Shown here in pieces: positions 6,398-23,535 of a stretch of DNA of 64,000 nucleotides; the stretch's first letter is position 1; each line of letters starts with the position of its first letter. Location: assembly GCA_902499925.1 (NCBI GenBank), contig GCA_902499925.1_4130.1; one strand, given 5' to 3'. Source of the stretch: Escherichia coli. GTDB lineage: Bacteria > Pseudomonadota > Gammaproteobacteria > Enterobacterales > Enterobacteriaceae. A program made the translations under genes and the position numbers. Below the pieces are notes generated by a model. It worked only from the letters and a program-made list of their open reading frames with translations. It made no database searches and was not told the DNA's origin.

Positions 6398-6456
6398 TGT
6401 GATATAACCCTTTACAATTAATATAAAGAGATTATATCACAAAGATTTGGAGGGTG

Positions 6457-7047
6457 TCAAGAGTTCTCACGAAGTTCTACCATTTCTTTCCATACTAAAT
6501 GGTAATCTTCTAAGTCCAGATAGAAGTCTTCATTTAAGTGCTCATATAAGTACTTGTACATGAATAGTACACCTAAATTGTATTCAGTAGTAAGCAATGA
6601 TTGTTGGAAGTAGTTTTCTTCATTTAGTTCTATATCCATGAACTCAAATCTACCTAGACCTTTTAATGTACGTATCTCAACATGTGAAGTATCTGTTTTA
6701 CTGAAGCACATGAATCCACCTCTAAATTCGGGATCATATTCACATTCATACTGTCCACTGTTATTATAGAAATCTCTATTACCATCCTTATCTTTTGGCT
6801 TAACAACTGATACGTGAAGGTCGTCATCTTTGTACATTGTACGTTCTGGCGTTTTCACACATTTTAACTTATTTTCTTTAATGTACTTGATAATATCAAT
6901 TATATCTTGTGCAGTACTGATTGCTGCCTCGAACGTATCCAACTTAAGATGATTGTATAGAGTTCCCTCGTTCTTTATTTTATCTAACATACTAACCTCA
7001 TAGTTCATACATCTTTGATTTGAATTGCATTGGTCCACCAACTTCAC
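6457..7047 (-). CDS. Family A paralog, function unknown
   Basis: Motif 'EENYFQQSLL'. Confidence 0.75.
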   Translation of the reverse strand: MKLVDQCNSNQRCMNYEVSMLDKIKNEGTLYNHLKLDTFEAAISTAQDIIDIIKYIKENKLKCVKTPERTMYKDDDLHVSVVKPKDKDGNRDFYNNSGQYECEYDPEFRGGFMCFSKTDTSHVEIRTLKGLGRFEFMDIELNEENYFQQSLLTTEYNLGVLFMYKYLYEHLNEDFYLDLEDYHLVWKEMVELRENS

Positions 7048-7336
7048 ATGGATAATTTTCCATAATACGATTCAAAAGTATCTGGTACTGTTGTAGTACT
7101 TCAATTTCCAAATGTATACTACTATCCAGTACTAATGACTCCTGAAACAATTCACCTCTATCTAAACCTGAAAAATCATTTATAGTTAGCATTGGCTTAT
7201 CATTTGTACGCAATGTAAATGATTCCTCATTTCGGATTAATGTACAGAATTCATTATGTTTTCTGTTGTAATCCATTTTAACCAATAATAACTTGGTGTG
7301 AGTTGCGTACATTATTTTTACTAATTCAGTCTTCAT
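6998..7336 (-). CDS. Family A paralog, function unknown
   Basis: Motif 'RGELFQESLVLD'. Confidence 0.75.
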   Translation of the reverse strand: MKTELVKIMYATHTKLLLVKMDYNRKHNEFCTLIRNEESFTLRTNDKPMLTINDFSGLDRGELFQESLVLDSSIHLEIEVLQQYQILLNRIMENYPCEVGGPMQFKSKMYEL

Positions 7337-7685
7337 AACGGAATAAAATTCTCCTGTACTGCTCCGGCTTAGTACTCAATCTCTTCACTGGATAATTGTC
7401 GAAGATCCTTTTCATTTCTTTCTGGATTAAACAAAGAAAATCAAAATCACAATAGTATTTTTTATCCCATACTAAACTTTCTTGAAACAACTCATCTTCT
7501 TGCATTAGCGTAGTATCAATTGTATCTTCACGTGTATTTGAGTACGCTTCATGACATTGAAAACCATCCTCGGATAATCCTAATGTATATGCCGCCATTT
7601 CAAACATATCATCATTTGTCTTTAACGAAAGTAAACAACAAACGTATTTTTTCGTTGTGTAGTAAGTAATGCTAATGGTATTCAT
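7326..7685 (-). CDS. Family A paralog, function unknown
   Basis: Motif 'EDELFQESLVWD'. Confidence 0.75.
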   Translation of the reverse strand: MNTISITYYTTKKYVCCLLSLKTNDDMFEMAAYTLGLSEDGFQCHEAYSNTREDTIDTTLMQEDELFQESLVWDKKYYCDFDFLCLIQKEMKRIFDNYPVKRLSTKPEQYRRILFRYED

Positions 7686-7690
7686 TGGAT

Positions 7691-8293
7691 TTAAACCTCA
7701 GTATAAAGCTTACAATAGCTTTCATCGAAATCAAAAATACTTCTCAAGAACTGACAAAGGTCAGTAAAAATATTTACATTTGCTATATACACATTATCAA
7801 ATTCTGTTCTTTCGAAGAATGTATGCATAGAATTTGTAATATATCTCATTGCAGATTCACGCTGCATTGTTATATCATTTGTGAACATCGCATCTTCATC
7901 AGTACTGACTAATTCAATATCAAATGATTGCATATATGGGATACTCTTCCCTAGTGCAAAGCTATCACCGTATGATGCTTCAACTGCATCTTTAGAATAC
8001 ACCAATTGATATAAGTCCGAAATAGGGTTATAAAAAGTACGACATATTGATGAACATAATTTATTATCTATCCAAAAGAAAACCCTATTTGTATTACCGT
8101 CAAATGCTATACGCAATCCATCACCATCTAACGATATATCACCATCGAGATTAAAAGAGAACTGAACTAATGCTTTTTCTAAGTCCATTCTTTTGTGATA
8201 AATGATTTCTTGCATATAGATAATATCATTTACTAATTTCTTAAAATACAAATGAACCTCAGTACTACAACATTTATTTGCATTTAATAACAT
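7691..8293 (-). CDS. Family A-like paralog (degenerate motif)
   Basis: Complete 200-aa ORF in array; weak motif 'EDAMFTNDIT'. Confidence 0.6.
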   Translation of the reverse strand: MLLNANKCCSTEVHLYFKKLVNDIIYMQEIIYHKRMDLEKALVQFSFNLDGDISLDGDGLRIAFDGNTNRVFFWIDNKLCSSICRTFYNPISDLYQLVYSKDAVEASYGDSFALGKSIPYMQSFDIELVSTDEDAMFTNDITMQRESAMRYITNSMHTFFERTEFDNVYIANVNIFTDLCQFLRSIFDFDESYCKLYTEV

Positions 8294-8880
8294 AGTAGAT
8301 CCTTATACATTGCATGTATTCTTACAATGTCTCTGTAATAACTCATATCTTCACGATTATCATTAAAAACAGTAACACTGAATACAGCAGTACTAATTGA
8401 ACTATCAACAATGTACTCTTTTAATTTATTATAAAGATATATGCACTTAGTAGATGTATCATCCCACATAAGACTATTTTGAAAGATGTTTTCTTCTGTG
8501 TTAGGATATAAGTACTGATCAATCTTGTACCCCAATGAACTATCACAGTTTTTATATACAGAAATAGATGGGACATTCATATTGCACATAATACTAATAA
8601 CATTATCATTGTATGTAGAAATTAAACTGGTACTGGATGCTACACTTTCATCATAATTCAGTACTGAAATTCTTGCATTATCTGTGCAGTACAGATGTTT
8701 CATTCCACCTCTCATAGCCATAGTAAGAAATTTATCAGTGAACCATATTCCTTTTGTTTTCAGTATAGTTTCATGCATAAGATAAGTTTCAATGAAGATT
8801 TTTACACGCTCAAATGCCAAGTCAAGTTCATTGTACATAACGGATATCCTTCTGTAAAGAATCAATATATTCTTTAACAA
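8284..8880 (-). CDS. Family A paralog, function unknown
   Basis: Motif 'EENIFQNSLMWD'. Confidence 0.75.
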   Translation of the reverse strand: MLKNILILYRRISVMYNELDLAFERVKIFIETYLMHETILKTKGIWFTDKFLTMAMRGGMKHLYCTDNARISVLNYDESVASSTSLISTYNDNVISIMCNMNVPSISVYKNCDSSLGYKIDQYLYPNTEENIFQNSLMWDDTSTKCIYLYNKLKEYIVDSSISTAVFSVTVFNDNREDMSYYRDIVRIHAMYKDLLCY

Positions 8881-9019
8881 CTTGTTCCTGATACTGTGTA
8901 CCCAAATACATCAGTACTTTTAATTCTTTGAATTCAGTACCATATGAGTCGATTTGCATCATTCTTTTAGAGTATATACCGAATAGTTTATCAATATCAT
9001 CTTGGTTTATTATTTTCAT
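8828..9019 (-). CDS. Family B paralog embedded in family A array
   Basis: 63-aa ORF with 'LGTQYQEQ' motif. Confidence 0.55.
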   Translation of the reverse strand: MKIINQDDIDKLFGIYSKRMMQIDSYGTEFKELKVLMYLGTQYQEQVVKEYIDSLQKDIRYVQ

Positions 9020-9224
9020 AAACCCTCTTCTGGATTAGTTCCTGTAAGTGCTGAATATAACCCTTCATTGCAACATCCTGTTTGTTAGAGCCAACGAAGA
9101 ACAATAGCTTAAAGTCATGGTAATCCATTTTTGGTTTAGTAGTGAACCATATGTCCCACACTGCACTCACAGTTCTCATGTATTCAATTCGATTAAATGT
9201 TTTTGAATACTTCATCGAAATCAA
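8997..9224 (-). CDS. Family B-like small protein
   Basis: 75-aa ORF with 'VGSNKQD...YIQHLQELI' resembling family B C-terminus. Confidence 0.5.
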   Translation of the reverse strand: MISMKYSKTFNRIEYMRTVSAVWDIWFTTKPKMDYHDFKLLFFVGSNKQDVAMKGYIQHLQELIQKRVYENNKPR

Positions 9225-9726
9225 CCTTTAATAAATTGATATTTAAATTACTGTTAAATGCCATCTGTAATTCCATATAGAACTGAATAATAGCATAGTC
9301 AGGATCAGTACAAGATAGTTGAAAGCACTGTTCTTCAAATGAATTGTAATTGTACTTAGGAATATTAATAGTACGATATAACTCTGGATAACCCCATATC
9401 ATAGTGTACACGTCAATTTCAGTACACTTTTTCTTAAAAGTCATCTGTCGAATAGTTTCAGATCTGGATTCAAGGTATACAACATTCTTATGAACGGCTG
9501 AACCAATTGAAAGCAATGATGTATCAATGACGTGTTTCTCACGTATATCACACTTCTGGAATGCACCATTCCCTTGTAACAGTTTATGGAAATCGTACTT
9601 CTCACTAATAACTGTACTAGGATCAATTAATCCAGTACTGCATTTTTTCAGTACTGGTACGATAGTGCGAATCTTTTTTGATAAATCTTGTAATGCATCA
9701 TAATCATTAATGTTAATTTTTCTCAA
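9193..9726 (-). CDS. Family A paralog, function unknown
   Basis: Motif 'EEQCFQLSCT'. Confidence 0.7.
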   Translation of the reverse strand: MRKININDYDALQDLSKKIRTIVPVLKKCSTGLIDPSTVISEKYDFHKLLQGNGAFQKCDIREKHVIDTSLLSIGSAVHKNVVYLESRSETIRQMTFKKKCTEIDVYTMIWGYPELYRTINIPKYNYNSFEEQCFQLSCTDPDYAIIQFYMELQMAFNSNLNINLLKVDFDEVFKNI

Positions 9727-10169
9727 ACGGATGCCTCTTCTATAGTAACGAAATCAACTAACCTATCAAGTTTTTCAGTGTCTAGATAAAATATATCCAG
9801 TACTGACTTCTGATATAGTACACTAAATGTACATAGATTGTCAAGTGTTCCTTCATTATAAACAGTACTTCCCTGGAAGTACCCTTCTTCTGTACTCAGA
9901 GATAAAATATCAGAAATTTTAAAAGATTCTTCATTCTCATGACGCTCTATCGTAACTTCATCATATTTTCTGTTCAATGAAATATAATCGTATGCTAATT
10001 CAATAGTACTACAGTTGTTGTTGCTAGTGTCAAATAAAGAATCAATTGTAATCTTCGTACCATTAGAAACTTCTCTGCGTTTATCATCTACGTATTCAGG
10101 ATTTTCTTTGAAGAACTTAACAACTTTTAGAATATCATTTGCTTTCTTGATTGCACTTTCGTAACTCAT
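9723..10169 (-). CDS. Family A paralog, function unknown
   Basis: Motif 'EEGYFQGSTVY'. Confidence 0.75.
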   Translation of the reverse strand: MSYESAIKKANDILKVVKFFKENPEYVDDKRREVSNGTKITIDSLFDTSNNNCSTIELAYDYISLNRKYDEVTIERHENEESFKISDILSLSTEEGYFQGSTVYNEGTLDNLCTFSVLYQKSVLDIFYLDTEKLDRLVDFVTIEEASV

Positions 10170-10608
10170 TTTTTCTGGACTCCATATATATCACCTGATT
10201 TAGTTCATATACATAATCTAAATCAATGAATATAGAATTATTAAAGTTCTCTTTCAGAAATGCATTAAAAACTACTAAAGCTCTTAATGCACTATTTGGG
10301 TATATAGTACTGTACTGGAAGTAAGCATCTTCTGAATTTAAGAATAGTACTTCTTCTTCGGTGAATTCAAAATATTTTCCACTTTCATCGATTGAATAGA
10401 AAGTTCCAGAATCCCATACGAAGTACTTGAATTCCAAATCATAATCATGGGACTCGTACTTATATTCATTACCTAATCCTAGAATATCTGTACCAACACT
10501 TATAGTACTAATATATGCCCCTTTATGGTCTAAGTACTTTACATTATTTTGAAAGAACTTTACTATATTAACTAATTCTTCAGCGTGCTTAAGATCACTT
10601 TCGTACAT
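10135..10608 (-). CDS. Family A paralog, function unknown
   Basis: Motif 'EDAYFQYSTIY'. Confidence 0.75.
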   Translation of the reverse strand: MYESDLKHAEELVNIVKFFQNNVKYLDHKGAYISTISVGTDILGLGNEYKYESHDYDLEFKYFVWDSGTFYSIDESGKYFEFTEEEVLFLNSEDAYFQYSTIYPNSALRALVVFNAFLKENFNNSIFIDLDYVYELNQVIYMESRKNELRKCNQESK

Positions 10609-10922
10609 TATATTTCAACCTCTATATATTCTTGGGTAATTAAGTAATCCCAGTAGTACTTCACTTGTTTTTGTATCTCAATTAAAGCATAAAAATTAAT
10701 TCTCTTATCCCATACAAGTGATTCCTGAAAAAGAAATGTTTCATGATCATCTCTGTAATCACATTCAAGGAAGTCAGGAATATAATCACAATCGTGAAGA
10801 TATTCAATCATTAAAGATTCATTACATCTCCTAACTGCAAGATGTTGGAAATTATCATGATCGAAGAAATACATTAGACTAATTGTTCCAGGAATGTACT
10901 GAATACTGTATAAGAATTTCAT
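10608..10922 (-). CDS. Family A paralog, function unknown
   Basis: Motif 'ETFLFQESLVWD'. Confidence 0.75.
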   Translation of the reverse strand: MKFLYSIQYIPGTISLMYFFDHDNFQHLAVRRCNESLMIEYLHDCDYIPDFLECDYRDDHETFLFQESLVWDKRINFYALIEIQKQVKYYWDYLITQEYIEVEI

Positions 10923-11362
10923 CGTTTACCCTTATATACTTCACGTACATATTCATAATCCAAATAAAATCTTGTACTATCAATACTTTTAAAGTACCAC
11001 ATAATAACTAAAGTATCTAGTACTTCATCATCATACAAAGTACTATTCTGAAAGTAATACTCTTCACTATCCCACGGACCTTTCAGTACTTCAAAGTTCA
11101 ATTTTAAAGGTCTGCTGCGATTATAAAAACGGATTTCACCACCATAAGCATAACTGATAAATTCTGCATCTGGATTGTATTGTGAAAAATCTGCGGGACT
11201 TTTGGAATTCAACCCAAGAATAACTGTAGTTGTAGCAAAATCACTATCCTTGTAGTAGTTACCATTCTCGGCTTTGTATACTTCTTCGAACTTCCCAGCC
11301 TTAATGTCTTCAATATATGCCTGTAGTTCTTTTGCTTTATCAAGAGCACTTCGTAATGACAT
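10919..11362 (-). CDS. Family A paralog, function unknown
   Basis: Motif 'EEYYFQNSTLY'; close paralog of the next two genes. Confidence 0.8.
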   Translation of the reverse strand: MSLRSALDKAKELQAYIEDIKAGKFEEVYKAENGNYYKDSDFATTTVILGLNSKSPADFSQYNPDAEFISYAYGGEIRFYNRSRPLKLNFEVLKGPWDSEEYYFQNSTLYDDEVLDTLVIMWYFKSIDSTRFYLDYEYVREVYKGKR

Positions 11363-11828
11363 TATCTTCCCCTACAGTATTCTCTACGTATTCATAATCG
11401 AAATAGAAACTACCAGAACCAATACTTTTAAAGTACCACATAATTACAATAACATCTAATTCTTCTTCATTGTACACAGTACTGTTCTGGAAGTAATATT
11501 CTTCACTATCCCACGGACCTTCTAGTACTGAATACGGAATGATTGTGTCATCAACATCACTATCTGTGTTGTAGATGGTAATATCTTCATTACGGCAATA
11601 ACTAATGTACTGATTGTACATATGATATTCACAGTTATCACTATCACCCGTATCAGTGTGTAGTACTAACGTTTCTGCATGTATCTCTGACTCATCATAA
11701 TCGTCGCGGTCTTTTACAAAAAATTCAGTATCAGATGTTTTATACACCCCAGGAACTGAACCTTCTTGTACCATAATCATGTACTCATGAATCTTCTTTG
11801 CTTCTTTCAATGCACTTTCTAATGACAT
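11340..11828 (-). CDS. Family A paralog, function unknown
   Basis: Motif 'EEYYFQNSTVY'. Confidence 0.8.
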   Translation of the reverse strand: MSLESALKEAKKIHEYMIMVQEGSVPGVYKTSDTEFFVKDRDDYDESEIHAETLVLHTDTGDSDNCEYHMYNQYISYCRNEDITIYNTDSDVDDTIIPYSVLEGPWDSEEYYFQNSTVYNEEELDVIVIMWYFKSIGSGSFYFDYEYVENTVGEDNVITKCS

Positions 11829-11830
11829 TA

Positions 11831-12271
11831 CTAATCCCCTGTACTTAAATATTCACATGCTCCCCAGTCAAGGAAGAAGGGTTCAAAATTCAATTCCTTA
11901 AAGTACCACAAAACAACCAAGGAATCAAGCATTTCTTGGTTAAAAATAAGACTCTGTTGGAAGTAATACTCTTCAGTACCCCACGGCCCATCAAGTACCC
12001 CGAAGTCAACAGGTGTATTTGATGTGTCAAAAGTAATCTTAGTACCTGGAATATATACAAAAAAACTAGTATATTGACTACATGAAGAGTACTGTATAGT
12101 ATTGTCTTTATCATGGCCCATAAGTAAAATATCATCAGAGTATGTCTTTATACCTGATAGATAATACTCATTACCAAATGCACTTACTTTATCACCATAG
12201 AAACCACTTTTTATGTTATCGTGGAAGTGATGTATTTTGTGTGCCAGTTTAAGTGCACTTGCTAAACTCAT
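11831..12271 (-). CDS. Family A paralog, function unknown
   Basis: Motif 'EEYYFQQSLIF'. Confidence 0.8.
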   Translation of the reverse strand: MSLASALKLAHKIHHFHDNIKSGFYGDKVSAFGNEYYLSGIKTYSDDILLMGHDKDNTIQYSSCSQYTSFFVYIPGTKITFDTSNTPVDFGVLDGPWGTEEYYFQQSLIFNQEMLDSLVVLWYFKELNFEPFFLDWGACEYLSTGD

Positions 12272-12738
12272 ATATCCTCTTTTATAACTCGTAGTAGATC
12301 CAAGTCCAAATAGAAGCTAGGACAATCTGTATTATTAAAGTACCACAGAATGACAAGCTTGTCAAGTACATCTTCCTCGTAGATAGTATTCTGCTGGAAG
12401 TAGAACTCTTCACTTCCCCAGTCATTATCCAGTACTGAATACGGAAGATGTTTCTCTGCTGCACCAGTTATAATGTCAGTATCTTGTATTAAAATATCAG
12501 CATCACGACAGAAGTACATGTAATTATCTTCCAAATTAACATCACACCCATTGAGTGTTGTTTCAGAAGAATCTAAGTTTTCTTCATACATGTGAATGTA
12601 CTCACTACTGTCATCGTATATCATTCGACAATAAGCTTTACCTTCCTTGAATAGATACCCATTGAGTCGATTGAGTACTATTTCCTTTTTACATAAATCA
12701 ATTAACTTAGCAATTTCTAATGCTCTTTCAAAACTCAT
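12268..12738 (-). CDS. Family A paralog, function unknown
   Basis: Motif 'EEFYFQQNTIY'. Confidence 0.8.
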   Translation of the reverse strand: MSFERALEIAKLIDLCKKEIVLNRLNGYLFKEGKAYCRMIYDDSSEYIHMYEENLDSSETTLNGCDVNLEDNYMYFCRDADILIQDTDIITGAAEKHLPYSVLDNDWGSEEFYFQQNTIYEEDVLDKLVILWYFNNTDCPSFYLDLDLLRVIKEDI

Positions 12739-12739
12739 A

Positions 12740-12925
12740 TCAACTCCTGTGTTGTGTCTTGATATAATCTCGGTACACCATGTGAATATTAGCTATATAC
12801 AATTCACTAATATCATATGTACCGAAGTACATGTCATTCCTAATGCTGTTGTTATGTCTAATATCAATTACGAATCGTCGAAGTATTGTATTCATGAATG
12901 ATTCCATTTGTTCTTTTTTATTCAT
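12740..12925 (-). CDS. Small hypothetical protein
   Basis: 61-aa ORF filling gap between family A genes. Confidence 0.4.
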   Translation of the reverse strand: MNKKEQMESFMNTILRRFVIDIRHNNSIRNDMYFGTYDISELYIANIHMVYRDYIKTQHRS

Positions 12926-13338
12926 AGCTTAAAACGATACCTATCTTTGGAATCAGTCTCTATACAGATTCTTCTATATTCTTTCATCTTCTGTTGGAGT
13001 TCAATGACTTCCTCTAGTGTACACAAGTACTTCTTGTCAAATATTAATGACTCTTGAAATATTTCAGCCTCACCCTGTACTGTTGTATAGTCTTTCATAT
13101 TTTCTACAACTGTTCCTTTGGACTGATAATCAATGAAGCTAAAGTAAGCACCATTAAATTTAATGTACTGATCCATTTTGTGTTCATAATCACCTTTGTT
13201 AAGATTGCAATACACTTCCAGTGAAGTACTAATCTTAGGTATAAACATAGAAAAATCATATTCCATATTACTCACCTGCATTGAAATAATAACTACTTGT
13301 TGTTGGTGTAGATGTATCAAAGGTGTTTTCTTTAACAT
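12922..13338 (-). CDS. Family A paralog, function unknown
   Basis: Motif 'AEIFQESLIFDKKYLCT'. Confidence 0.8.
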   Translation of the reverse strand: MLKKTPLIHLHQQQVVIISMQVSNMEYDFSMFIPKISTSLEVYCNLNKGDYEHKMDQYIKFNGAYFSFIDYQSKGTVVENMKDYTTVQGEAEIFQESLIFDKKYLCTLEEVIELQQKMKEYRRICIETDSKDRYRFKL

Positions 13339-13633
13339 ATCTCTTCATTTCATTTTGTATAAAAATCATATCTTCTATTGTACATGAGTACTTATTCTTG
13401 TCAAACACCAAAGAAGCTTGAAATAGTTCAACATCATCCAGTACTGTATAATCTGTAATACTTTCAGAGTTATAGTCGAAGTCATCATGCAATACATCAA
13501 TGAAATTAAAACACAAATCCGAGTACTGAATATATAAACTCAACTCATGTTCCGAATCACCCTTGACAAGATTGCAGCACAAATCCCACCCCGTTCTGGA
13601 CTTACAAACGTACATCGAATAATCAAATGTCAT
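13268..13633 (-). CDS. Family A paralog, function unknown
   Basis: Motif 'VELFQASLVFDK'. Confidence 0.75.
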   Translation of the reverse strand: MTFDYSMYVCKSRTGWDLCCNLVKGDSEHELSLYIQYSDLCFNFIDVLHDDFDYNSESITDYTVLDDVELFQASLVFDKNKYSCTIEDMIFIQNEMKRYVKENTFDTSTPTTSSYYFNAGE

Positions 13634-13986
13634 TCTGGTATTCCTATATTGAATTTGTATTCTTGATTAATACTGACATTGCCTTTATTCAAAGAGTCAT
13701 ACTCTTTCATTTCATTTTGTATTGCAATAACTTCTTCAAATGTACACAAGTACTTCTTATCAAATACTAATGACTCCTGAAATAGTTCAGCGGCATCCAT
13801 TACTGTATAATCCGGCATATCCTGATGCGGATACTGTAATGAATTATAATCAATGAATGTGAATTTACCCTGAGTGAAATGAATATACTCATTTGCACTG
13901 TGCATTAAATCACCTTTGTTTAAATTACAAAAGTACTGAAAACTGTTCTTAAAAGAATGTACTGATATTACAAAATCAAATTCCAT
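13630..13986 (-). CDS. Family A paralog, function unknown
   Basis: Motif 'AELFQESLVFDKKYLCT'. Confidence 0.8.
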   Translation of the reverse strand: MEFDFVISVHSFKNSFQYFCNLNKGDLMHSANEYIHFTQGKFTFIDYNSLQYPHQDMPDYTVMDAAELFQESLVFDKKYLCTFEEVIAIQNEMKEYDSLNKGNVSINQEYKFNIGIPE

Positions 13987-14354
13987 CAGTACTCAACCTC
14001 TAAATTAAAAGATTCAGGAAACTTAGTCATATAATCTTCAGGATAGTTCTGCATTGTTTTGATCATCTCTACCTGTGTAGCACGGACGTATTCAATTGGT
14101 GCTCCTGGTAAATTCCAGACAGTACTTTCCTGAAAGAATTCCTCTTCTGACAGTACTGTAAGATTTACAAAATCATTACGGTAATTTTTTGAATCATCAT
14201 ATGTGAAGATTTTAAAAGACCCATTTTCATATAGTACAAGAACAAAATGTGAGAATTTTTGTAATGCACCACCCATTTCCACGTCCGCATGATTCAGTGT
14301 ACAGATGACCTCTTTTTTCCTCATACCGAATTGAATTCTAATTTCTTTTTTCAT
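13986..14354 (-). CDS. Family A paralog, function unknown
   Basis: Motif 'EEEFFQESTVW'. Confidence 0.75.
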   Translation of the reverse strand: MKKEIRIQFGMRKKEVICTLNHADVEMGGALQKFSHFVLVLYENGSFKIFTYDDSKNYRNDFVNLTVLSEEEFFQESTVWNLPGAPIEYVRATQVEMIKTMQNYPEDYMTKFPESFNLEVEY

Positions 14355-14406
14355 AAAATCTCCTTCAGATTAGTACTGAATTTGTACAGAATATTAGAAC
14401 TGTATC

Positions 14407-14493
14407 CATAATCAAATCACCTTTGTTTAAATTACAAAAGTACTGAAAACTATTCTTGAAAGAATGTACTGATATTACAAAATCAAATTCCAT
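14407..14493 (-). pseudogene. Truncated duplicate of the 5' end of family A gene 13630..13986
   Basis: About 80 bp near-identical to 13905-13986 (start codon plus first ~25 codons) with no continuing ORF. Confidence 0.5.
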
Positions 14494-14966
14494 CACTCTT
14501 CCCCTAGATTGAAATAATTACTAAAATTAGTTTCACCAGTTTTACACCATTTATCGATACAATCCTTGTGAATAAATTTGATCCTACGCTGGATTTCAAC
14601 TATCTCTTCTAATGTACAGTTGTACTTCTTATCAAATACTAATGCCTCCTGAAACAGTGCAGCCTCATCCATTAATGTATAATCCAGCATATCGGTTGCT
14701 TTACCCCTAAACCCAGTACTAAAATCCATCAAATAAAATTGAGAATTTTCGAACTTTATAAGTTTGTCCCTTGCGTAGTTTAAATCACGCTTGCACAAAT
14801 TACAGCACGTAATAAACTCACCAGTGTACATCCATGTCCCTATATGAAAATCTTTATATTTCATTTGCATCTTCATTTCAATTGTAATCTTTACTGTAAT
14901 TAATAAGGTAAACTCCAATATAAGGAGCACGTTCGCGGCGGGGTATTTTTTTGTTTCAGGAAACAT
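14493..14966 (-). CDS. Family A paralog; true start probably internal (~14876)
   Basis: Motif 'AALFQEALVFDKKYNCT'; N-terminal extension hydrophobic and unlike paralogs. Confidence 0.7.
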   Translation of the reverse strand: MFPETKKYPAANVLLILEFTLLITVKITIEMKMQMKYKDFHIGTWMYTGEFITCCNLCKRDLNYARDKLIKFENSQFYLMDFSTGFRGKATDMLDYTLMDEAALFQEALVFDKKYNCTLEEIVEIQRRIKFIHKDCIDKWCKTGETNFSNYFNLGEE

Positions 14967-15078
14967 GAACTGTACTCTGAAAACACATTTTAAAACTTTA
15001 TATTAAACATATACCTTAACATGTTTTTCAGCGAAAATTTTTTTGACCCCCCCAGCGGCCTGTGAAAACGAAACGTCT

Positions 15079-15324
15079 CTATTTATTCAGCCTAGAAAGC
15101 TTGATTTCTTCAATCCTTTTCATCGCACAAAGCCTTCGACTCGTCCTCTCGTACATATTCAATACTCGTTGTAATGCATTATCTGTATTATCTGTAACTG
15201 CAATCTGAACCAAATATGTATCCTTCAAAATCGAATCCATCATGAATTCAAAACCTTTCACACTAAAGCAATATACCACTTCCGGCTCTTCAAACGTAAT
15301 CATAATTCCAATCCCCTGTCCCAT
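15079..15324 (-). CDS. Hypothetical small protein
   Basis: 81-aa ORF, minus strand. Confidence 0.4.
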   Translation of the reverse strand: MGQGIGIMITFEEPEVVYCFSVKGFEFMMDSILKDTYLVQIAVTDNTDNALQRVLNMYERTSRRLCAMKRIEEIKLSRLNK

Positions 15325-15493
15325 CTAACCTTCTAAGATATCTTGCGTAAATTATTTCGAAATATCTGTGCAACGAAATTACGGATTGCTCATAATCATC
15401 ATTCCTGTACATTGTGCATGTAAGAAAATCATTTAAACCGTAATCTAAACTGCACTTGAACTTCTCCTTTGCAACATCTCTAAAATTATCCAT
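15290..15493 (-). CDS. Hypothetical small protein
   Basis: 67-aa ORF, minus strand. Confidence 0.4.
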   Translation of the reverse strand: MDNFRDVAKEKFKCSLDYGLNDFLTCTMYRNDDYEQSVISLHRYFEIIYARYLRRLDGTGDWNYDYV

Positions 15494-15656
15494 AATATGT
15501 CCTCTGCACAGCGTAGGTGTACTGTGAACTCAGCACCGTTAATAGGTAATCTATGTTGTAAGCACGATTTCCTCGTTGACTAGCACGACTAGAATAAAGA
15601 ATATTATCCACATATGTATCGAACTGTTCTTCAAATAACTCTTTCATCAGCACCCT

Positions 15657-16211
15657 TTAGCACCCTTTAACAACTTTTGAAATGTAATCTTCTAATGCAC
15701 CAATGTTCTTTGTATTCGTTCGAACTAAAAGATAACTTAAATTCTCGAACTCCTGAACATAATGCTTAACAGCGTACATGCATCGTAATTCAAAATCTGT
15801 ATGAACCGTTTTGTACTGAAATAACATCTCTTCTGAAGCATCTAAAAGCTCTGTAGCTTGTTCTGTACTGAACTTAAAGGGATTCTGTACTCCTGAACTA
15901 AAACACTTTTGTACGTTCGTCTGGACACCCTGTGATAGATATAATCCTGTACTACCATCTTGTGTTGATATCGAATTGAAACCATTACTTGCAACCATTA
16001 AATCTGAACTCAATACAAATAATAATTTATCTTCCTTATGAATTAATAAATCTGACTTCAGGGATTTTATTCCTGTACTGGTTATATCACCTATACTAAG
16101 ATTGTCACTGAACTTCTCAGCGTTGTTCGCAATGCTCTGGACAAGATTTTTTAATCTCTTAATGGCACTTCTGTCTTTTTCTAATGTATCTAATAAACTC
16201 ATTGAACTCAT
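15657..16211 (-). CDS. Family A-like protein
   Basis: Motif 'EEMLFQYKTV'; start moved to ATG preceded by AAGGAAAG (track ORF extends to 16283). Confidence 0.6.
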   Translation of the reverse strand: MSSMSLLDTLEKDRSAIKRLKNLVQSIANNAEKFSDNLSIGDITSTGIKSLKSDLLIHKEDKLLFVLSSDLMVASNGFNSISTQDGSTGLYLSQGVQTNVQKCFSSGVQNPFKFSTEQATELLDASEEMLFQYKTVHTDFELRCMYAVKHYVQEFENLSYLLVRTNTKNIGALEDYISKVVKGC

Positions 16212-16221
16212 TGTACTTTCC

Positions 16222-16566
16222 TTACATATTTGTACTGAACAAAACGGAACTTTGAATGCCATTAATCGACACTTCATGTACATATATATTTTGTCTGAAT
16301 ACCTGAAGCAATTGAACTAAACTCTGTTGCATAATAATATGCATCGCTAAATTATCAAAGGCCGTTTCGTATTGGAATCGTGCAGCATCATCTTCTATGA
16401 AATTCGGAACTTGGACTGGATTTTCAAAATTTGTCCTTGTACTGAACTGTACATCATTGTCCTGTACCTTAATACCATATGAATTATCTTTGTTATCAAC
16501 TACATCAAATTCAATTAAACTACCATCTTTACTGACGTTTACTATATAAACTGAAAATCTACTCAT
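16222..16566 (-). CDS. Family A-like protein
   Basis: Motif 'DAARFQYETAF'. Confidence 0.6.
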   Translation of the reverse strand: MSRFSVYIVNVSKDGSLIEFDVVDNKDNSYGIKVQDNDVQFSTRTNFENPVQVPNFIEDDAARFQYETAFDNLAMHIIMQQSLVQLLQVFRQNIYVHEVSINGIQSSVLFSTNM

Positions 16567-17081
16567 AATCCTATTTCCTTTAAATCTTCCAAAAATGTTT
16601 CATAATCACTTAAGGAAAAAAAGATATCCGTATCGATGTTCGCATCTAATACATTATACAAATTCTGCATCTGTAACACATCAGGAGCATCAATCAATGA
16701 TTGCTGGAAATAGGCAGCTTCATCTTCCAAAATATCTCTGAATGTTCTCTCTCGTACTCTGTGGTGTACTGAATTGAATATTGATTTCTCATCCTTAAGC
16801 ATTGGTAGGTATCGAATGTACATGTGTTCTCTTAGCTCTGGACTGATGGAACCCCTGAACTGTAACACGTATTCGAAGCACATAGCAACATCCTGAAGGT
16901 AATTGGCACTGTAATTATTGCTGTAAACAATCTTATGACTTCTGAACTCATCATCATTTCTGAACCAATTGTCACCTACTTTGGTGTACTTATGACTAAG
17001 CAATCCACCCTCTAACGCTTTGATGATCTTCAAAATGTTGTGTGCAAATGCATATGATGTATTGTACTTGGCCTGATACAT
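16563..17081 (-). CDS. Family A paralog, function unknown
   Basis: Motif 'EAAYFQQSLID'; start moved to MYQAKY... matching paralog N-termini (track ORF extends to 17204). Confidence 0.7.
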   Translation of the reverse strand: MYQAKYNTSYAFAHNILKIIKALEGGLLSHKYTKVGDNWFRNDDEFRSHKIVYSNNYSANYLQDVAMCFEYVLQFRGSISPELREHMYIRYLPMLKDEKSIFNSVHHRVRERTFRDILEDEAAYFQQSLIDAPDVLQMQNLYNVLDANIDTDIFFSLSDYETFLEDLKEIGL

Positions 17082-17293
17082 GTGTGCCTCATCTGCCTCA
17101 TTTGGCGTTAAAATATTCACTGAAATGATTATAACACAAAAGCACCACGATGTTAAGCACTCTGTTGTCAAAATCATCTTGTGATGCAGGATGCAAGGAC
17201 GCATTGATGTTAAAATTCACTATATCATTGTGGAATTGGTATGTGAACAAATCAAACTTCGTATGCCTTTGTTTGATATCATCGGCGGTCATA

Positions 17294-17902
17294 TTATATA
17301 TTCAACCCTTTAACAATGGAAATAAATTCTTTGTATACATTTTCAGGTAAAGCTCTACTACCATAAAGAACACTAAATTCAGGTAACATATCCGAAATCT
17401 CTTTCGCTAAATTTATTTCATCCCTGAACATTTGCACAGGCATGATATCCTGTACCAATGATAACTGAAAGAAAAATGATTCAATATCTTCATGCACCTC
17501 TGAATTTAAATAAATCTCTTCTGGAAACTGGTCTGTACTGTAATAATAAAATACGTCAATTCTTTTTTCATTATTTTGTACAAGAGGTAAATTTCTTTCG
17601 TCTCTCTTATTAATATTTGTTTTCCATGACTCAATGTTATTCGGAACCCAAAACTCATAAGGTGTTTTCTCTCCTGAAATATTATCCAGCTTCAATCCAT
17701 AATATTCACCTTCGCCGTACTTCTGCTTCAAAACAATACCTGTACTACTGATGTTTACAATGTACGTATCAACAATCCCCTCTGCGGTAAAAGGAATATT
17801 TAACTCTGAACCTTCAGGGTACTTAGCATTGAATGCATCTAATGCTTTACTAAGCACTGGAATTGCACTTGTACTGTACTTCATTAATTGATCTATGTTC
17901 AT
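17294..17902 (-). CDS. Family A paralog, function unknown
   Basis: Motif 'ESFFFQLSLVQD'. Confidence 0.7.
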   Translation of the reverse strand: MNIDQLMKYSTSAIPVLSKALDAFNAKYPEGSELNIPFTAEGIVDTYIVNISSTGIVLKQKYGEGEYYGLKLDNISGEKTPYEFWVPNNIESWKTNINKRDERNLPLVQNNEKRIDVFYYYSTDQFPEEIYLNSEVHEDIESFFFQLSLVQDIMPVQMFRDEINLAKEISDMLPEFSVLYGSRALPENVYKEFISIVKGLNI

Positions 17903-18483
17903 TTTAATGCCCCTGTAATCATACTGAAATTTGAACGATACATATCGTACACTGTACTTTCTTTCTTGTGCACAATGAAATCATAAAGATCGACGAATGC
18001 AGGAATAATAATCTTGAATGATTTATTCTTGTACGTCCCAAACTCAACGGTGCTCAATTTTGCAACGAGCATAGCAACAAAGATTTCTTCTGGACTATGC
18101 AATGTACTGTACTGAAAATAATCCTCTGCACTTATTTCACCCATTGCACTAATATCTTGTACTTGTAATGAAATTTTAAGATAATAATAAGAAAAATCAT
18201 TCTCTGATTTGTTTTGTATTTTGTATTGGTCTATGGGTACATCTCTCATGAACCATAAACGGTCCTGACCATAAAAAGGAATGATTGAATTTGGGGAACC
18301 CAAAAAAACTTCTTCTCTATCAATATCCTTTAACTCAATTTGCATACTGGATGAATTGGCAATAATTAATTCATTAAAAATGTAATGAACCTTGTGTACC
18401 ATCTCTTGTACTGAATTGAAATCATCTGGTATTTTAAAATTTTCCATAGGTATCTCCTTAAAAATGATTACACATTGTACCAT
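17899..18483 (-). CDS. Family A paralog, function unknown
   Basis: Motif 'AEDYFQYSTLH'. Confidence 0.75.
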   Translation of the reverse strand: MVQCVIIFKEIPMENFKIPDDFNSVQEMVHKVHYIFNELIIANSSSMQIELKDIDREEVFLGSPNSIIPFYGQDRLWFMRDVPIDQYKIQNKSENDFSYYYLKISLQVQDISAMGEISAEDYFQYSTLHSPEEIFVAMLVAKLSTVEFGTYKNKSFKIIIPAFVDLYDFIVHKKESTVYDMYRSNFSMITGALK

Positions 18484-18519
18484 GCATTTGTACTGGTGTC
18501 AAACAAAAAAGCCCATATC

Positions 18520-19017
18520 TTACGATACAGGCATGTTTATTTGAATTTCATTGTACAAATCATCAATATATAGACATGAAAACGATAAACTTTCTTTAAC
18601 TATATTGTTGTGATAAAGCATTTTAAACACTATATAGAAAAATAAATCAATATCATCATGTACTAAATTCTGCTGGAACCACCACTCTTCTGTTAAATCT
18701 TGTGCATTAAAATCATCAGGAACTTCAATTGACGACATATCAACATCTTCTTTGTACTCAAACCACATGTCGTCATTCGGATAACGTTCATGTTTTTCTG
18801 GGTAACAATTGCTGGGATTAAATGCTAAAATATAAAATGTCGTCGCAGAATGTTCTTTATTAAAAAATGAATTATTCCACACCTGATACCTTTCACCAAC
18901 ATCAATCTCTTTTGATACTGATGTTATTGCACATAATGTACGATATATTGTTTCTATTTTGTGAACAAATTTAAAGGCTGCATCTAAACTGAACTCTAAA
19001 TCAGACATGCGGTGCAT
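18520..19017 (-). CDS. Family A paralog, function unknown
   Basis: Motif 'EEWWFQQNLVHD'. Confidence 0.75.
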   Translation of the reverse strand: MHRMSDLEFSLDAAFKFVHKIETIYRTLCAITSVSKEIDVGERYQVWNNSFFNKEHSATTFYILAFNPSNCYPEKHERYPNDDMWFEYKEDVDMSSIEVPDDFNAQDLTEEWWFQQNLVHDDIDLFFYIVFKMLYHNNIVKESLSFSCLYIDDLYNEIQINMPVS

Positions 19018-19337
19018 AAAATTATCTCAACTAAAATAAGAACGGTATTGAATTCGAGGCAACCTTTGATACCTTGATTGTACATGTACTTTGCTACTAC
19101 ATATTTCTGTACTAAATTATAATTATTAAATTCCTCAAAATTGTAATTTAGAATGAAATTTGTACTCAAAAATAACTTATGCATCTCTAATGCACTCTGA
19201 TAATATTTGTACAACTCACTGATATCAATACTTTGTAAATCACTTTGTTCATATGTATGATAAGGAATGGCGTCAATTTCAATATTATTAAACCATTCTC
19301 TTAACTTATTAATATCAAATGTATTATTCAGCTTCAT
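18996..19337 (-). CDS. Hypothetical protein
   Basis: 113-aa ORF, no family motif. Confidence 0.45.
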   Translation of the reverse strand: MKLNNTFDINKLREWFNNIEIDAIPYHTYEQSDLQSIDISELYKYYQSALEMHKLFLSTNFILNYNFEEFNNYNLVQKYVVAKYMYNQGIKGCLEFNTVLILVEIILCTACLI

Positions 19338-19890
19338 AACTCAATACCTCCATTAAGCACTCATAAACACCATCAATCGCATAAGCACAAAAACTGAAAT
19401 TAATTTTGTTATTCTTGTGTAATGGACTATTGTATACTGTACTCATTATGACATTATAAAATAACAAACGCACTGGTACAAGCATTGAACCTTGGAAAAA
19501 TTCTTCCTCTGATTTATATGTATTGTACTCTATTGCTTTGTTCGTTTCTGTATCATATTTTACCATTACTAACGGGGCATTTTTATTATACCATGCGTAC
19601 TCTAAATCATTCTTTCCAATAACAGCACCAGGGGCAAAATCCAAAAGACTAATAACACTACGGGCATTTGGGGTATCAGGTGTATTGAATCGTTTATCAA
19701 AATGTCTCGTGCACGCAATATATGTATTGTACTTCGATGGAATAATACCAATACATTTGTGGATGTGACGCTTGTAATCTTTCTGTGCATTATATAAGGC
19801 TGCAACAATACAAGCTAACTTTTGTCCCATAAGGATTGCATTAGCGTAGGTGTACTGAATTTCATTGTACTCACTGTACGTCGATGTCAT
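19324..19890 (-). CDS. Family A paralog, function unknown
   Basis: Motif 'EEEFFQGSMLV'. Confidence 0.75.
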   Translation of the reverse strand: MTSTYSEYNEIQYTYANAILMGQKLACIVAALYNAQKDYKRHIHKCIGIIPSKYNTYIACTRHFDKRFNTPDTPNARSVISLLDFAPGAVIGKNDLEYAWYNKNAPLVMVKYDTETNKAIEYNTYKSEEEFFQGSMLVPVRLLFYNVIMSTVYNSPLHKNNKINFSFCAYAIDGVYECLMEVLSYEAE

Positions 19891-20182
19891 AATACGCTCC
19901 TACCTCATAATCTTTCTTGCTTTGGAATTCATTAACGACTTTCTGTATATTTCTTAATGTTACCATGTCATGTCCGTACATGTCAACCACCAATTGCATT
20001 TGGAAAAATTCTTCTTCAGATAATGTATTAAAATCTATAAAATAATCCGTAACAACCTGTGCGTCTAAATTTGCCATGTACCATTGATTGGTATCGACCT
20101 CTTTAACCAAATTCCATGCATCTGAATCGGATTCTAATTCTACATATATTAATGTTAATGTATAAAGCATTTTATACTTCAT
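19871..20182 (-). CDS. Family A paralog, function unknown
   Basis: Motif 'EEEFFQMQLVVD'. Confidence 0.75.
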   Translation of the reverse strand: MKYKMLYTLTLIYVELESDSDAWNLVKEVDTNQWYMANLDAQVVTDYFIDFNTLSEEEFFQMQLVVDMYGHDMVTLRNIQKVVNEFQSKKDYEVGAYYDIDVQ

Positions 20183-20732
20183 AACTGTATCCTTGCATTA
20201 AAAGATCATAAGCAATATCAACTAATTCTAAACGAATGAAAAATTTTAAATTATCTTTCAATGGATTCAAATGCATTGTACTAAACAACATAAGATACTT
20301 CATTTGATTTGTATTGTATATTAGGGATGTCTGAAATACTTCTGCTTCATTGTAAGGATCAATGAATTTTATACCTTCTTCACTGTAATCCGTTTTGGAA
20401 TTCTGATATATAAAATAATCATCACCAGCATTATACCACAAATAACCTTCAAAACTAGAATCAAATTCTGAATTTTCATTTCGCATTAAAGGTGATACTG
20501 AAATTGGATTTGAACCAACTGTTGCACAAACCTCAAGGAAAGCATCTTCACTTCCCTTAACTTCCTCTTTGATTTTATCATTGTACTGACCTGCAAAACC
20601 AGCTTTTACTTCCAAATATAAACTACTACCAACTTTATTAATTCTTAAAAGGGAACTCTGTACTGTATTCGCATTATTCAGCACAAACACTATTGTGCAA
20701 ATCTTATGTACCAATAACTGAATATCATTCAT
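20172..20732 (-). CDS. Family A paralog, function unknown
   Basis: Motif 'EAEVFQTSLIY'. Confidence 0.75.
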   Translation of the reverse strand: MNDIQLLVHKICTIVFVLNNANTVQSSLLRINKVGSSLYLEVKAGFAGQYNDKIKEEVKGSEDAFLEVCATVGSNPISVSPLMRNENSEFDSSFEGYLWYNAGDDYFIYQNSKTDYSEEGIKFIDPYNEAEVFQTSLIYNTNQMKYLMLFSTMHLNPLKDNLKFFIRLELVDIAYDLLMQGYSYEV

Positions 20733-20733
20733 A

Positions 20734-21063
20734 TTATACCCTTGTGCATTTAAGCACTGTAACTAAACCTTTTGCGTTCTTGAAATGCATTAACGATAAT
20801 GATGCATCAACGTATTGTAATGATACAATTACATCTTCTGATGTGTTCTTGAATAAAAATTCCTGTACTGAATTCTCACCAAAATAAATGTACTTTGTGG
20901 ACTCAATTTGCAAATACGGAATTTCTGTACTATGTAAAAAGATATCAATTTTATCATTGTTTTGTAATCTGCAATCAAATTGATATACTTCATAATCAGC
21001 GGCCTGTACTGTATTAGAGAACATTGATAAAATAAATGTTAGAGCTAAAATAATTTTATTCAT
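20734..21063 (-). CDS. Putative secreted/periplasmic small protein
   Basis: N-terminus MNKIILALTFILSMFSNTVQA-ADYE looks like a cleavable signal peptide. Confidence 0.6.
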   Translation of the reverse strand: MNKIILALTFILSMFSNTVQAADYEVYQFDCRLQNNDKIDIFLHSTEIPYLQIESTKYIYFGENSVQEFLFKNTSEDVIVSLQYVDASLSLMHFKNAKGLVTVLKCTRV

Positions 21064-21074
21064 ATTGGTATTCC

Positions 21075-21257
21075 TTAATTTGGTGGATTTGGATGTAATA
21101 AATGATCTATATAATTTAAATGTTCTATTGTAACTAATGAAAGATAATAATTGTAATCATCAATACCACCCTTTAAATGTATATTGTAATACATCTTGAT
21201 ACTTACTAATAAAGAATCATTTAAATCATTTATTGCTTTTGTATTAACGTCTTTCAT
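21075..21257 (-). CDS. Hypothetical small protein
   Basis: 60-aa ORF. Confidence 0.3.
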   Translation of the reverse strand: MKDVNTKAINDLNDSLLVSIKMYYNIHLKGGIDDYNYYLSLVTIEHLNYIDHLLHPNPPN

Positions 21258-21396
21258 TAATGTTCTTCTCTTAAAAAACGCTTAATGGCACAATCTAAAT
21301 AAAAATCATAATACATCATATCTCGATTCTTAACCCATACACAATAATCTGCATTAATATTTCTTAATAATATATTCATATTATAATCTTCACTCC

Positions 21397-21786
21397 CTAA
21401 TCGTGCCATTTAATAGGATACTCCGTTCCATTTATTGTATAAGATATAATCCATCCGTAATGAATAGGACTATTCTTTTCTCCTTTAGGAATAAAATATA
21501 AAGATGTACTAGGATTATAACTGAATAAATCTTTATTGTCAAATGTAAAATGAGATAACGTTATCTTCCTTGAACTTGGACTAATAACATTCTTAACACC
21601 AAACACGGTATCTTGATATTTCTCTGAAAATTCAAACAATGCATCTGTAATTAAATCATTGAATTCTATACATAATGGTTTAAAAGAACCATCATTATCT
21701 TTGAATTCCTTATATAAAGAGCTTCTTGTATTCAAAAGAAATATTACTTTTTTAAGATCCTGAACTATTTCTGGATTCATATTCAT
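21397..21786 (-). CDS. Hypothetical protein
   Basis: 129-aa ORF. Confidence 0.5.
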   Translation of the reverse strand: MNMNPEIVQDLKKVIFLLNTRSSLYKEFKDNDGSFKPLCIEFNDLITDALFEFSEKYQDTVFGVKNVISPSSRKITLSHFTFDNKDLFSYNPSTSLYFIPKGEKNSPIHYGWIISYTINGTEYPIKWHD

Positions 21787-22003
21787 TTATCTCATCCTGT
21801 AACTTAAGCATCAAAATTTGCATATTAATTTTTTGTACAAGGTGATTGAGAAATTTCTGTACTGTATCTTCTTGTTCTTTTGACCCAAGATAAAATAACA
21901 TATTAAATTCCGATAACCTCAGAGCAAAATCGTCATCTCCCCCTTGTAAACAAAAATCCCTGTACTTTGATGCATACAAATAACGGTTTATTTTTTTGTA
22001 CAT
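21752..22003 (-). CDS. Family B paralog
   Basis: Motif 'LGSKEQED'. Confidence 0.55.
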   Translation of the reverse strand: MYKKINRYLYASKYRDFCLQGGDDDFALRLSEFNMLFYLGSKEQEDTVQKFLNHLVQKINMQILMLKLQDEINEYESRNSSGS

Positions 22004-22031
22004 TTATATTGCATCTCCTTTAGGTATATTC

Positions 22032-22343
22032 TTATATGTCAATTTCAATGATCCTCCCTGACATACCTTGTATTAGCTTATCATACATATCGAGCATCAC
22101 TTTTTGAATACTAATTAATACTGGCATCGTGCAAATATCAATGTCGTATATTAAGCTGTACTGGAATAATTCCTCTTCCTGCATTTGTACTAAATTAGGT
22201 AAAAGATAATTGTCTGCCTCTTCATCCTGGTACTTGAAATGCATAACGCCATCCTTTTTGTACAAAAGAATGTCAATATCACCTAACTCTTCTGCATAAC
22301 CAAAAATACATATACTCGATGTTTTTGCTATATTAAATTTCAT
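22032..22343 (-). CDS. Family A paralog (short form)
   Basis: Motif 'EEELFQYSLIYD'. Confidence 0.75.
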   Translation of the reverse strand: MKFNIAKTSSICIFGYAEELGDIDILLYKKDGVMHFKYQDEEADNYLLPNLVQMQEEELFQYSLIYDIDICTMPVLISIQKVMLDMYDKLIQGMSGRIIEIDI

Positions 22344-22352
22344 ATTCTTCTC

Positions 22353-22676
22353 TTATATGTGGAATTCACATACGTGTTGAACAAAATTCTTTGGAAGATG
22401 ACAATGTGTAATCATCTGCTTTTGTACTTCCTTCATATCTTCGAATGTAAATCCTAAAGAATCATCATGTACTAACAAGTACTGAAACTCTTCTTCTTCA
22501 GAGATAGAACATAAATTCGGTACTGAAATTGTTTTTGTTTTTCTTGCACCTAATTTCCAATGAAAAGAATTATTGCATTTTCTGTACTCAAATATCTTCA
22601 ACCCAGAACCTGTATTAAAATCAGCTACTACAATGTAACATGAATTCTTACGTACAATACAATTGAACTTACGCAT
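22353..22676 (-). CDS. Family A paralog (short form)
   Basis: Motif 'EEEEFQYLLVHD'; start moved to MRKFNCIV (track ORF to 22703). Confidence 0.7.
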   Translation of the reverse strand: MRKFNCIVRKNSCYIVVADFNTGSGLKIFEYRKCNNSFHWKLGARKTKTISVPNLCSISEEEEFQYLLVHDDSLGFTFEDMKEVQKQMITHCHLPKNFVQHVCEFHI

Positions 22677-22921
22677 TATCTCCACCTCTCTCCGTCTGTA
22701 CAAGAGTACTGGTACGTTGTCGTTAGGGTAGGAACCATGTTTGTAATGGGCATATTGTTAACAATAACCGTAACAGGCATAAGAATCGTCTCTTCTCTAC
22801 TCTGTCCTGTCCTTGTGCAATTCATCTTCTGCATTTCATCTGAATCCATGAAATACAATACAAATGGTGCAATCCCAAGAACAATACACAAGACGATAAG
22901 GAAATTTAAAAAATTTAACAT
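22676..22921 (-). CDS. Putative small membrane protein
   Basis: N-terminal ~24 strongly hydrophobic residues (LNFLNFLIVLCIVLGIAPFVLYF). Confidence 0.4.
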   Translation of the reverse strand: MLNFLNFLIVLCIVLGIAPFVLYFMDSDEMQKMNCTRTGQSREETILMPVTVIVNNMPITNMVPTLTTTYQYSCTDGERWR

Positions 22922-23532: not shown

Positions 23533-23535
23533 GGT

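Follow-up and report, generated by a model that had tools for sequence, protein, structure and literature searches.

The duplicated gene start at 14411..14495 of the window (the whole 64,000-nt stretch of DNA analysed here) is, with a probability of roughly 80%, the left copy of an 85-nt target duplication left by an ectopic insertion between two family-A genes. The inserted piece would comprise the last ~140 nt of a 192-aa gene together with a complete 122-aa gene, both originating from a different allele of the same array. Four features characteristic of an insertion scar are found at the site, namely, bracketing repeats, single-copy empty sites, a source context that extends beyond the insert, and joints at microhomologies.

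Overview of the site and its gene families

The window is part of a jumbo coliphage of the Asteriusvirus (121Q/PBECO4-like) type. At the site, the genes are encoded by the minus strand and follow each other closely, stop codons overlapping start codons. With a 2.2-kb query centred on the fragment region, 36 phage records were matched, including 121Q, PBECO4, Turkey3, fEgEco12, and four Salmonella phages, with Turkey3 as the best match (94.7%). No description of this locus was found in the literature searched. The site consists of the following features.

13630..13986, minus strand: 118-aa family-A gene whose start is duplicated (phrog_15629; PHROG match 1.3e-54)
13904..13988, minus strand: R2, right-hand repeat copy, which forms the true 5' end of the 118-aa gene; the single-copy site of L028, a close relative, has the same sequence
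13986..14354, minus strand: 122-aa gene, intact, probable payload of the insertion (phrog_13866; PHROG match 1.1e-43)
14355..14410, minus strand: relic of 56 nt, 3' end of a 192-aa (A4_364-like) gene, from multi-genome alignment
14365..14493, minus strand: chimeric relic ORF of 42 codons plus TGA, from translations; the first 28 codons are a family-A start and the rest is a frameshifted 364-like tail
14411..14495, minus strand: R1, duplicated 5' fragment of the 118-aa gene (codons 1-28, ATG at 14491-14493), which includes the TGATG overlap of this start with the stop of the upstream gene
14493..14966, minus strand: upstream family-A gene, called as a 157-aa ORF (PHROG match 7.1e-50 over residues 37-156)

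Family A corresponds to phrog_15629, a family of unknown function with four members at 12922-14966, and the intact family-A neighbours of the fragment match this PHROG at 1e-47 to 1e-55. The family of the 122-aa gene, phrog_13866, is distinct from phrog_15629 and only distantly related to it (a weak cross-match, E 0.003). Ten proteins of the array, the 122-aa protein included, gave no credible domain in Pfam, and in PHROGs the array proteins matched families of unknown function only. The family-A fold predicted with AlphaFold2 (pLDDT 83.8) had no informative relative among solved structures; it recurs only in uncharacterised viral proteins, and the significant matches from named organisms are Asteriusvirus and RaK2 phages. 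The 157-aa ORF at 14493..14966 is probably over-extended, with its true start at an internal ATG near 14870-14876; its orthologues are annotated at 125-127 aa, and the upstream part of the ORF (window 14871-14966) matches conserved intergenic sequence in A4.

On a wider scale, many small ORFs on the minus strand at window ~5200-24000 share an E-x-(F/Y)-F-Q-x-S motif followed by a helical region. The ORFs with this motif span PHROG families 15629, 13866, 9317, 12674, 28680, and 31297, and they suggest one very large, fast-diverging superfamily limited to Asteriusvirus/RaK2-like phages.

A gene start is duplicated on both sides of the 122-aa gene

Positions 13904-13988 and 14411-14495 form a direct repeat of 85 nt, 82/85 identical, with a start-to-start spacing of 507. 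When the 64-kb window was searched allowing 3 mismatches, no match was found beyond the two copies, and 100 dinucleotide-preserving shuffles yielded zero matches, indicating that the repeat did not arise by chance. The repeat covers 27-28 codons, and the encoded residues are identical up to NLNKGDL; in tblastn, the fragment encodes only residues 1-28 of the 118-aa protein and is not a full-length phrog_15629 match. In gene sense, the last 8 nt of R1 (14411-14418) are GATTTGAT, the microhomology of joint J1, and R2 positions 13982-13988 are TGATGGA, the microhomology of joint J2.

The sequence-only reading that drew attention to this site had described a nearly identical copy of a gene start, which is indeed present. 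Its identity does exceed that between ordinary family-A 5' ends, the point on which that reading depended; over their first 90 nt, the remaining family-A genes of the window share just 45-63% identity with one another and with the 118-aa gene. Its boundaries of 14394-14493 do contain the repeat but are shifted, including ~17 nt of non-homologous tail and omitting 2 nt of the stop/start overlap. The stop that it placed after the repeat is in frame, but the frame of R1 runs on for 14 unrelated codons past the homology to a TGA at 14365-14367, 42 codons from the ATG. It had also counted both neighbours of the fragment as family A, which is incorrect for 13986..14354, a member of phrog_13866 and not of phrog_15629.

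In the 118-aa gene and its orthologues, codons 11-19 (window ~13930-13958) form a short hypervariable patch. Depending on the phage, the patch reads SFKNSF, SFKHSY, TFKHSY, TFKNTH, SFKLQR, or TVKGAP, with several changes per codon and invariant flanking nucleotides, suggesting diversifying selection or patchwise gene conversion.

Empty and filled sites among related phages

A 515-nt query over the insert sorted the 36 related phage records into three groups. Twelve of them have the insert here (121Q [two records], slurp01, Turkey3, phAPEC6, SHEFM2K, G17, ECO103 4-12-1, BF17, EC22.5-2, Sharanji, and CRJP21), and 23 have one 85-90-nt match only, once each, which corresponds to an empty site with a single copy. 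A4 has the 122-aa gene at its native place only, without the repeat. The insert measures 507 bp in the window, where it is flanked by the 85-nt repeats, and the cassette ranges from 507 to 590 bp across carriers. fEgEco12 and PBECO4 lack 507 bp, both flanks of the window overlapping there on one junction copy, and the annotation of these phages places the 118-aa gene directly after the upstream family-A gene. The exact 118-aa protein of the window is present on 15 public contigs; four of these (L026-L029) match the window at 96-98% identity along 7 kb, and in each of the four the site is empty. Throughout the 36 phage records and the metagenomic contigs examined, the site is either empty or occupied by the same chimeric stump, apart from A4. 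When the start of the 122-aa gene was used as an exact search pattern, IMG/VR gave only 121Q itself and the JGI metagenomes gave nothing; protein look-ups yielded more additional contexts than these pattern searches.

Source of the insert and structure of the joints

In A4, the 122-aa gene (A4_365) is preceded by the 192-aa gene A4_364, the last 46 residues of which are the tail of 121Q gp366, a 74-aa fragment ORF; A4_364 ends with VAFQQDLIMDVDSAATYSSNVLCKEFQNSKILELLYIADCNILYKFCTHLKEIL before its stop, and 121Q gp366 starts with MEFDF and ends with NLNKGDLIMDTDTEVVYSSNVLCKEFQNSKMLELLCIADCNILYKFSTNLKEIL before its stop. Traced backwards from the start codon of the gene that follows the 122-aa gene, the nucleotide homology to A4 continues to the exact point at which the family-A homology ends, and blastn placed 121Q (L003 2200-2721) on A4 (L005 1994-2515) with 92.5% identity. 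A full-length 192-198-aa gene followed by the 122-aa gene is also found in L019, L021, and L022 (a 357,761-bp contig), in the same context as in A4, and the 122-aa gene of the window is 93.8-94.7% identical in nucleotides to A4 and to these three contigs.

According to tblastx, the window is collinear with the A4 record at 28-62 kb. A4_350, the single family-A gene of A4, is located opposite the family-A genes of the window, whereas A4_364-366 (record 43.6-44.9 kb) are opposite window 8293-6998. This native place, about 6 kb away in the array, is occupied in the window by distant homologues of the donor-type genes.

6998..8293, minus strand: native position of the donor-type genes, distant homologues (tblastn 25.6%, 28.3%, and 36.5% amino-acid identity)
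7691..8293, minus strand: 200 aa, counterpart of A4_364 (tblastn 25.6%)
7326..7685, minus strand: 119 aa, counterpart of A4_365 (tblastn 28.3%)
6998..7336, minus strand: 112 aa, counterpart of A4_366 (tblastn 36.5%)

The C terminus of A4_364 aligns full length, through the point of J1, with its positional orthologue at 7691..8293. Together with the synteny between A4 and the window, this alignment indicates that the full-length context is the native source and that the stump at 14355-14410 is derived. The payload thus appears, from these alignments, to be an A4-type allele copied about 6 kb away within the array. The opposite direction, with A4 as recipient rather than source, was rejected; the 192-aa gene of A4 is full length and matches its positional orthologue end to end.

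Joint J1 is located at the 8-nt GATTTGAT, which is shared by the family-A sequence (AAAGGTGATTTGAT, continuing with gcac) and A4_364 (CAACAGGATTTGAT, continuing with TATGGA). Joint J2 is located at the 7-nt TGATGGA, a stop/start overlap common to the A4_365/A4_366 boundary and to the family-A boundary. Past GATTTGAT, all insert-carrying genomes run identically into the A4_364-type tail, and both joints are common to all carriers, indicating that the insertion event was unique.

Proposed route of insertion

At J1, the tail of the 192-aa gene would have become the in-frame continuation of the 118-aa gene after codon 28, with GATTTGAT as the microhomology, and at J2 the stop of the 122-aa gene would have been joined to the start of the 118-aa gene at TGATGGA, both being illegitimate joints. 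The 85 nt would occur twice because J2 coincides with the first base of the recipient gene and J1 is 85 nt further in; either two recipient molecules or two template switches would place this stretch on both sides of the insert. We infer that the process was break-join or copy-choice between co-infecting genomes, and the order of the joints likewise. After this single event, the cassette would have moved among diverged Asteriusvirus backgrounds by homologous recombination in the flanking genes and the 85-nt repeats, and exchange in the same flanks and repeats has probably since removed it again from some backgrounds. The same structure could be reached by tandem duplication of a ~5.7-kb interval in an A4-like ancestor, followed by internal deletion and allelic replacement, so that R1 once belonged to a full-length gene; this route is more complex.

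Spread and probable loss of the cassette

The insert is 98-99.5% identical across backgrounds with flanks differing by 10-18%. For the 122-aa gene, the window differs from slurp01 at 2/366 positions (99.5% identical) and from 121Q at 5/366, compared with 71/405 differences from slurp01 in the upstream gene and 26/274 in the downstream gene (p<1e-8). A near-identical insert in diverged flanks points to spread or loss of the cassette by homologous recombination. Four upstream-flank haplotypes were distinguished, each with both filled and empty sites (the window and ph0011; Turkey3 with fEgEco12 and EC.P1; 121Q and PBECO4; BF17 and CRJP21 with SD-2_S15). In the window, R2 equals the single copy of L028, and R1 with its upstream flank departs from the single copy of ph0011 only at the last polymorphic base; therefore, the three differences between R1 and R2 are imported polymorphisms rather than new mutations. 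These mosaics show that homologous exchange at the site is frequent. A carrier may have supplied the cassette, or R1xR2 recombination may have removed it; the mosaic patterns agree with both, and the empty sites in close relatives may be either ancestral or secondary losses, for which the same patterns are expected.

It is also conceivable, although we consider it doubtful, that the 85-nt gene start serves as a portable homology arm, with R1xR2 recombination excising a ~0.5-kb circle that re-integrates by a single crossover. If so, the 122-aa gene would be a recombinase-free, Campbell-type cassette, comparable to the T4 PeSL mini-circles but made from coding sequence, and the target of its circle would be the conserved single-copy site in any co-infecting Asteriusvirus. 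An excisable cassette would then explain the 98-99.5% identity across backgrounds whose flanks differ by 10-18%.

Decay of the chimeric ORF

The tail that follows R1 was compared in an alignment of the window, Turkey3, phAPEC6, slurp01, CRJP21, 121Q, and A4. Its length is 138 nt for 121Q and A4-like genomes; it falls to 75 nt in phages of the Turkey3 type and to 56 nt in the window. The 138-nt tail gives a 74-aa ORF in 121Q, L020, and L023, and the 75-nt tail gives a 53-aa ORF in Turkey3, phAPEC6, slurp01, BF17, and CRJP21; both versions end with NILYKFSTNLKEIL before the stop and overlap the 122-aa gene by ATGA. The shortening is due to a 63-nt in-frame deletion between TAAT(G/A)TTCTGT repeats at about window 14390-14399, present in all examined carriers except the 121Q type (121Q and the metagenome contigs L020 and L023), and to a window-specific 19-nt deletion between ATACAG repeats at about 14400-14405, which frameshifts the chimeric ORF. 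Compared with A4, the tail has 18/138 differences and the 122-aa gene 20/369 (Fisher p=0.007), so that the tail has diverged 2.4 times faster, a difference that could also come from a donor not exactly A4-like. The faster divergence and the two deletions indicate relaxed constraint on the tail. As far as these comparisons go, the chimeric ORF appears to be a by-product under relaxed constraint, which shrank from 74 to 53 aa and became frameshifted in the window.

It is unlikely that the chimeric short ORF has been kept by selection, either as a bridging leader, translated by coupling at the TGATG overlap with the upstream gene and passing ribosomes to the 122-aa gene at the ATGA overlap, or as a small functional protein. 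The frame is open from the coupled ATG to the ATGA overlap in Turkey3, phAPEC6, slurp01, BF17, CRJP21, 121Q, L020, and L023; it was kept through the 63-nt deletion and is in frame, with both overlaps preserved, in every carrier examined other than the window, which could point to some selection (e.g., for translational coupling) instead of pure neutrality. However, the 19-nt deletion in the window ends the ORF 8 nt before the next ATG and the 122-aa gene is still intact, with its own AAGGAG ribosome-binding site (14360-14365) inside the 14355..14410 relic. Selection would also have to be reconciled with the 2.4-fold faster divergence of the tail, with six non-synonymous codon changes in the 121Q-type R1, and with the frameshift of the 122-aa gene itself in two metagenomes.

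No Rfam family was found for the fragment region, the RNA fold of the fragment had a z-score of 0.07 with no stable fold, and no promoter or terminator consensus was found on the coding strand at 14355-14495; thus, no other role is indicated for the fragment. The 85-nt duplicate is an ordinary by-product and not a working element, and we infer that the stump lacks function.

The frameshifted ectopic 122-aa genes were observed in two ENA metagenomes (L023 3001-3294 and L024 68-361), where the frame is broken in the FFQES motif and the product is 97 aa. The same frameshift in two separate assemblies suggests that the payload itself is dispensable in some lineages.

Unequal exchange within family A and other origins

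The sequence-only reading had interpreted the fragment as a footprint of unequal recombination within the array and as a sign of active turnover of its genes. Turnover is supported, since the site is present or absent among relatives and L025 contains a true unequal-crossover fusion; the fragment is also a footprint of recombination, but not one of unequal exchange between family-A genes. For the latter, a full-length family-A paralogue must once have occupied the site and been truncated by unequal homologous recombination, with its first ~25 codons left, which we regard as very unlikely. Unequal exchange of adjacent family-A genes does occur in the group (the L025 fusion, P0007), and the array has 66-108-nt blocks, 68-81% identical, that could support it. 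Nevertheless, beyond base 85 the homology of the fragment is to an A4_364-type gene of another family and not to family A, and at 96% identity the fragment is a copy of the start of the neighbouring 118-aa gene and not a paralogue, paralogues being 45-63% identical. The full-length copy whose existence at this site the earlier reading had raised was found in none of the 36 phage records or metagenomic contigs examined.

The L025 fusion (L025 3001-3330, Logan SRR27732228) is a 109-aa product (P0007) of the upstream family-A gene and the 118-aa gene, in which window 14605 is joined to 13821; it is a true unequal crossover that deleted one unit. In UE-S1 (L013 1727-2455), a single 243-aa ORF is annotated across both family-A genes.

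Transposons, insertion sequences, and homing elements are recognised by a transposase or nuclease, terminal inverted repeats, and target duplications of 2-14 bp. Direct repeats around an insert that only some genomes carry might also be expected of an assembly artefact or of a conventional mobile element with target-site duplication (a transposon, a homing-endonuclease gene, or an integron cassette), but both are highly improbable and were rejected, the artefact because the same structure recurs in at least 12 independently sequenced phages and several metagenomes, and the transposon or homing element because there is no enzyme (no Pfam domain in the 122-aa protein) and there are no element ends (no terminal inverted repeats at the borders, an insert that begins inside a truncated gene, and an 85-nt duplication far beyond transposon target duplications).

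Relation to known systems

In the Hendrix/Hatfull model for lambdoid phages and mycobacteriophages, mosaic genomes arise from illegitimate-recombination junctions. The scar described here is a known kind of phage mosaicism; it reveals no new mechanism and no function for the gene family. As in phage mosaicism generally, a new joint of unrelated sequences would have formed at a microhomology of a few bases and spread via homologous or homeologous flanks, with non-functional leftovers being deleted gradually. Unlike usual mosaicism, one joint falls within two coding sequences and can still be seen as a chimeric stump fused in frame, donor and recipient occupy different places in one paralogue array, and the empty site and donor context are both still available in relatives. 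Tandem gene families undergo segmental duplication and give rise to chimeric pseudogenes by non-allelic or microhomology-mediated recombination. Like such pseudogenes, the stump is a truncated gene start fused to the end of another gene, beside an intact gene; in contrast to them, it is found in a virus and at a 0.5-kb scale, with inter-genome exchange evident from mosaic identities.

Illegitimate and homeologous recombination have been set against each other as sources of mosaicism (Martinsohn et al. 2008, PMC2327257), and modular shuffling with mini-circles is described for the promoter-early stem-loop (PeSL) cassettes of T4-type phages (Arbiol et al. 2010, PMC2839356; PMC4122927). Similar to PeSL cassettes, the 122-aa gene is small and non-essential, belongs to a hyperplastic region in a large virulent myovirus, and is bracketed by direct repeats, through which recombination would remove the gene or place it back at a single-copy site of another genome. 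However, PeSL repeats combine a sigma-70-like promoter with a stem-loop terminator, and the repeats here are the coding 5' end of a neighbouring gene, with no promoter-terminator consensus, and they are a one-off duplication, whereas PeSL elements form a dispersed repeat family.

The scar documents the rebuilding of small-paralogue arrays in jumbo phages, with the donor, empty, and filled states all surviving, and it provides a natural marker for recombination among Asteriusviruses. With respect to annotation, the 43-74-aa ORFs called at the site (e.g., 121Q gp366) are chimeric relics and not genes.

Other repeats in the window

An intergenic repeat of 80-120 nt occurs in at least 18 copies at window 30500-50100 (e.g., 33256-33333, 36528-36605, 41101-41191, and 45261-45351). 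On the coding (minus) strand, it consists of TTGCAA/TTGACA, 17 nt, TATAAT, and a GC-rich hairpin (GGGGAGAA..TTCTCCCC) that immediately precedes a ribosome-binding site and ATG. With their promoter and stem-loop, the repeats resemble the T4 PeSL elements and may drive gene shuffling in the jumbo phage. On the plus strand, window 55383-63996 contains a second large paralogue array of eight tandem ~1.2-kb units, each of which opens with a conserved TATAGTATAATGAATAAAGGAGG leader and the codons MLPFVRMFDYGN. Finally, an imperfect tandem repeat with an 8-nt period (CGTCTAGC, CATCCAGC, and so on) and about 19 units is located at window 49479-49630.
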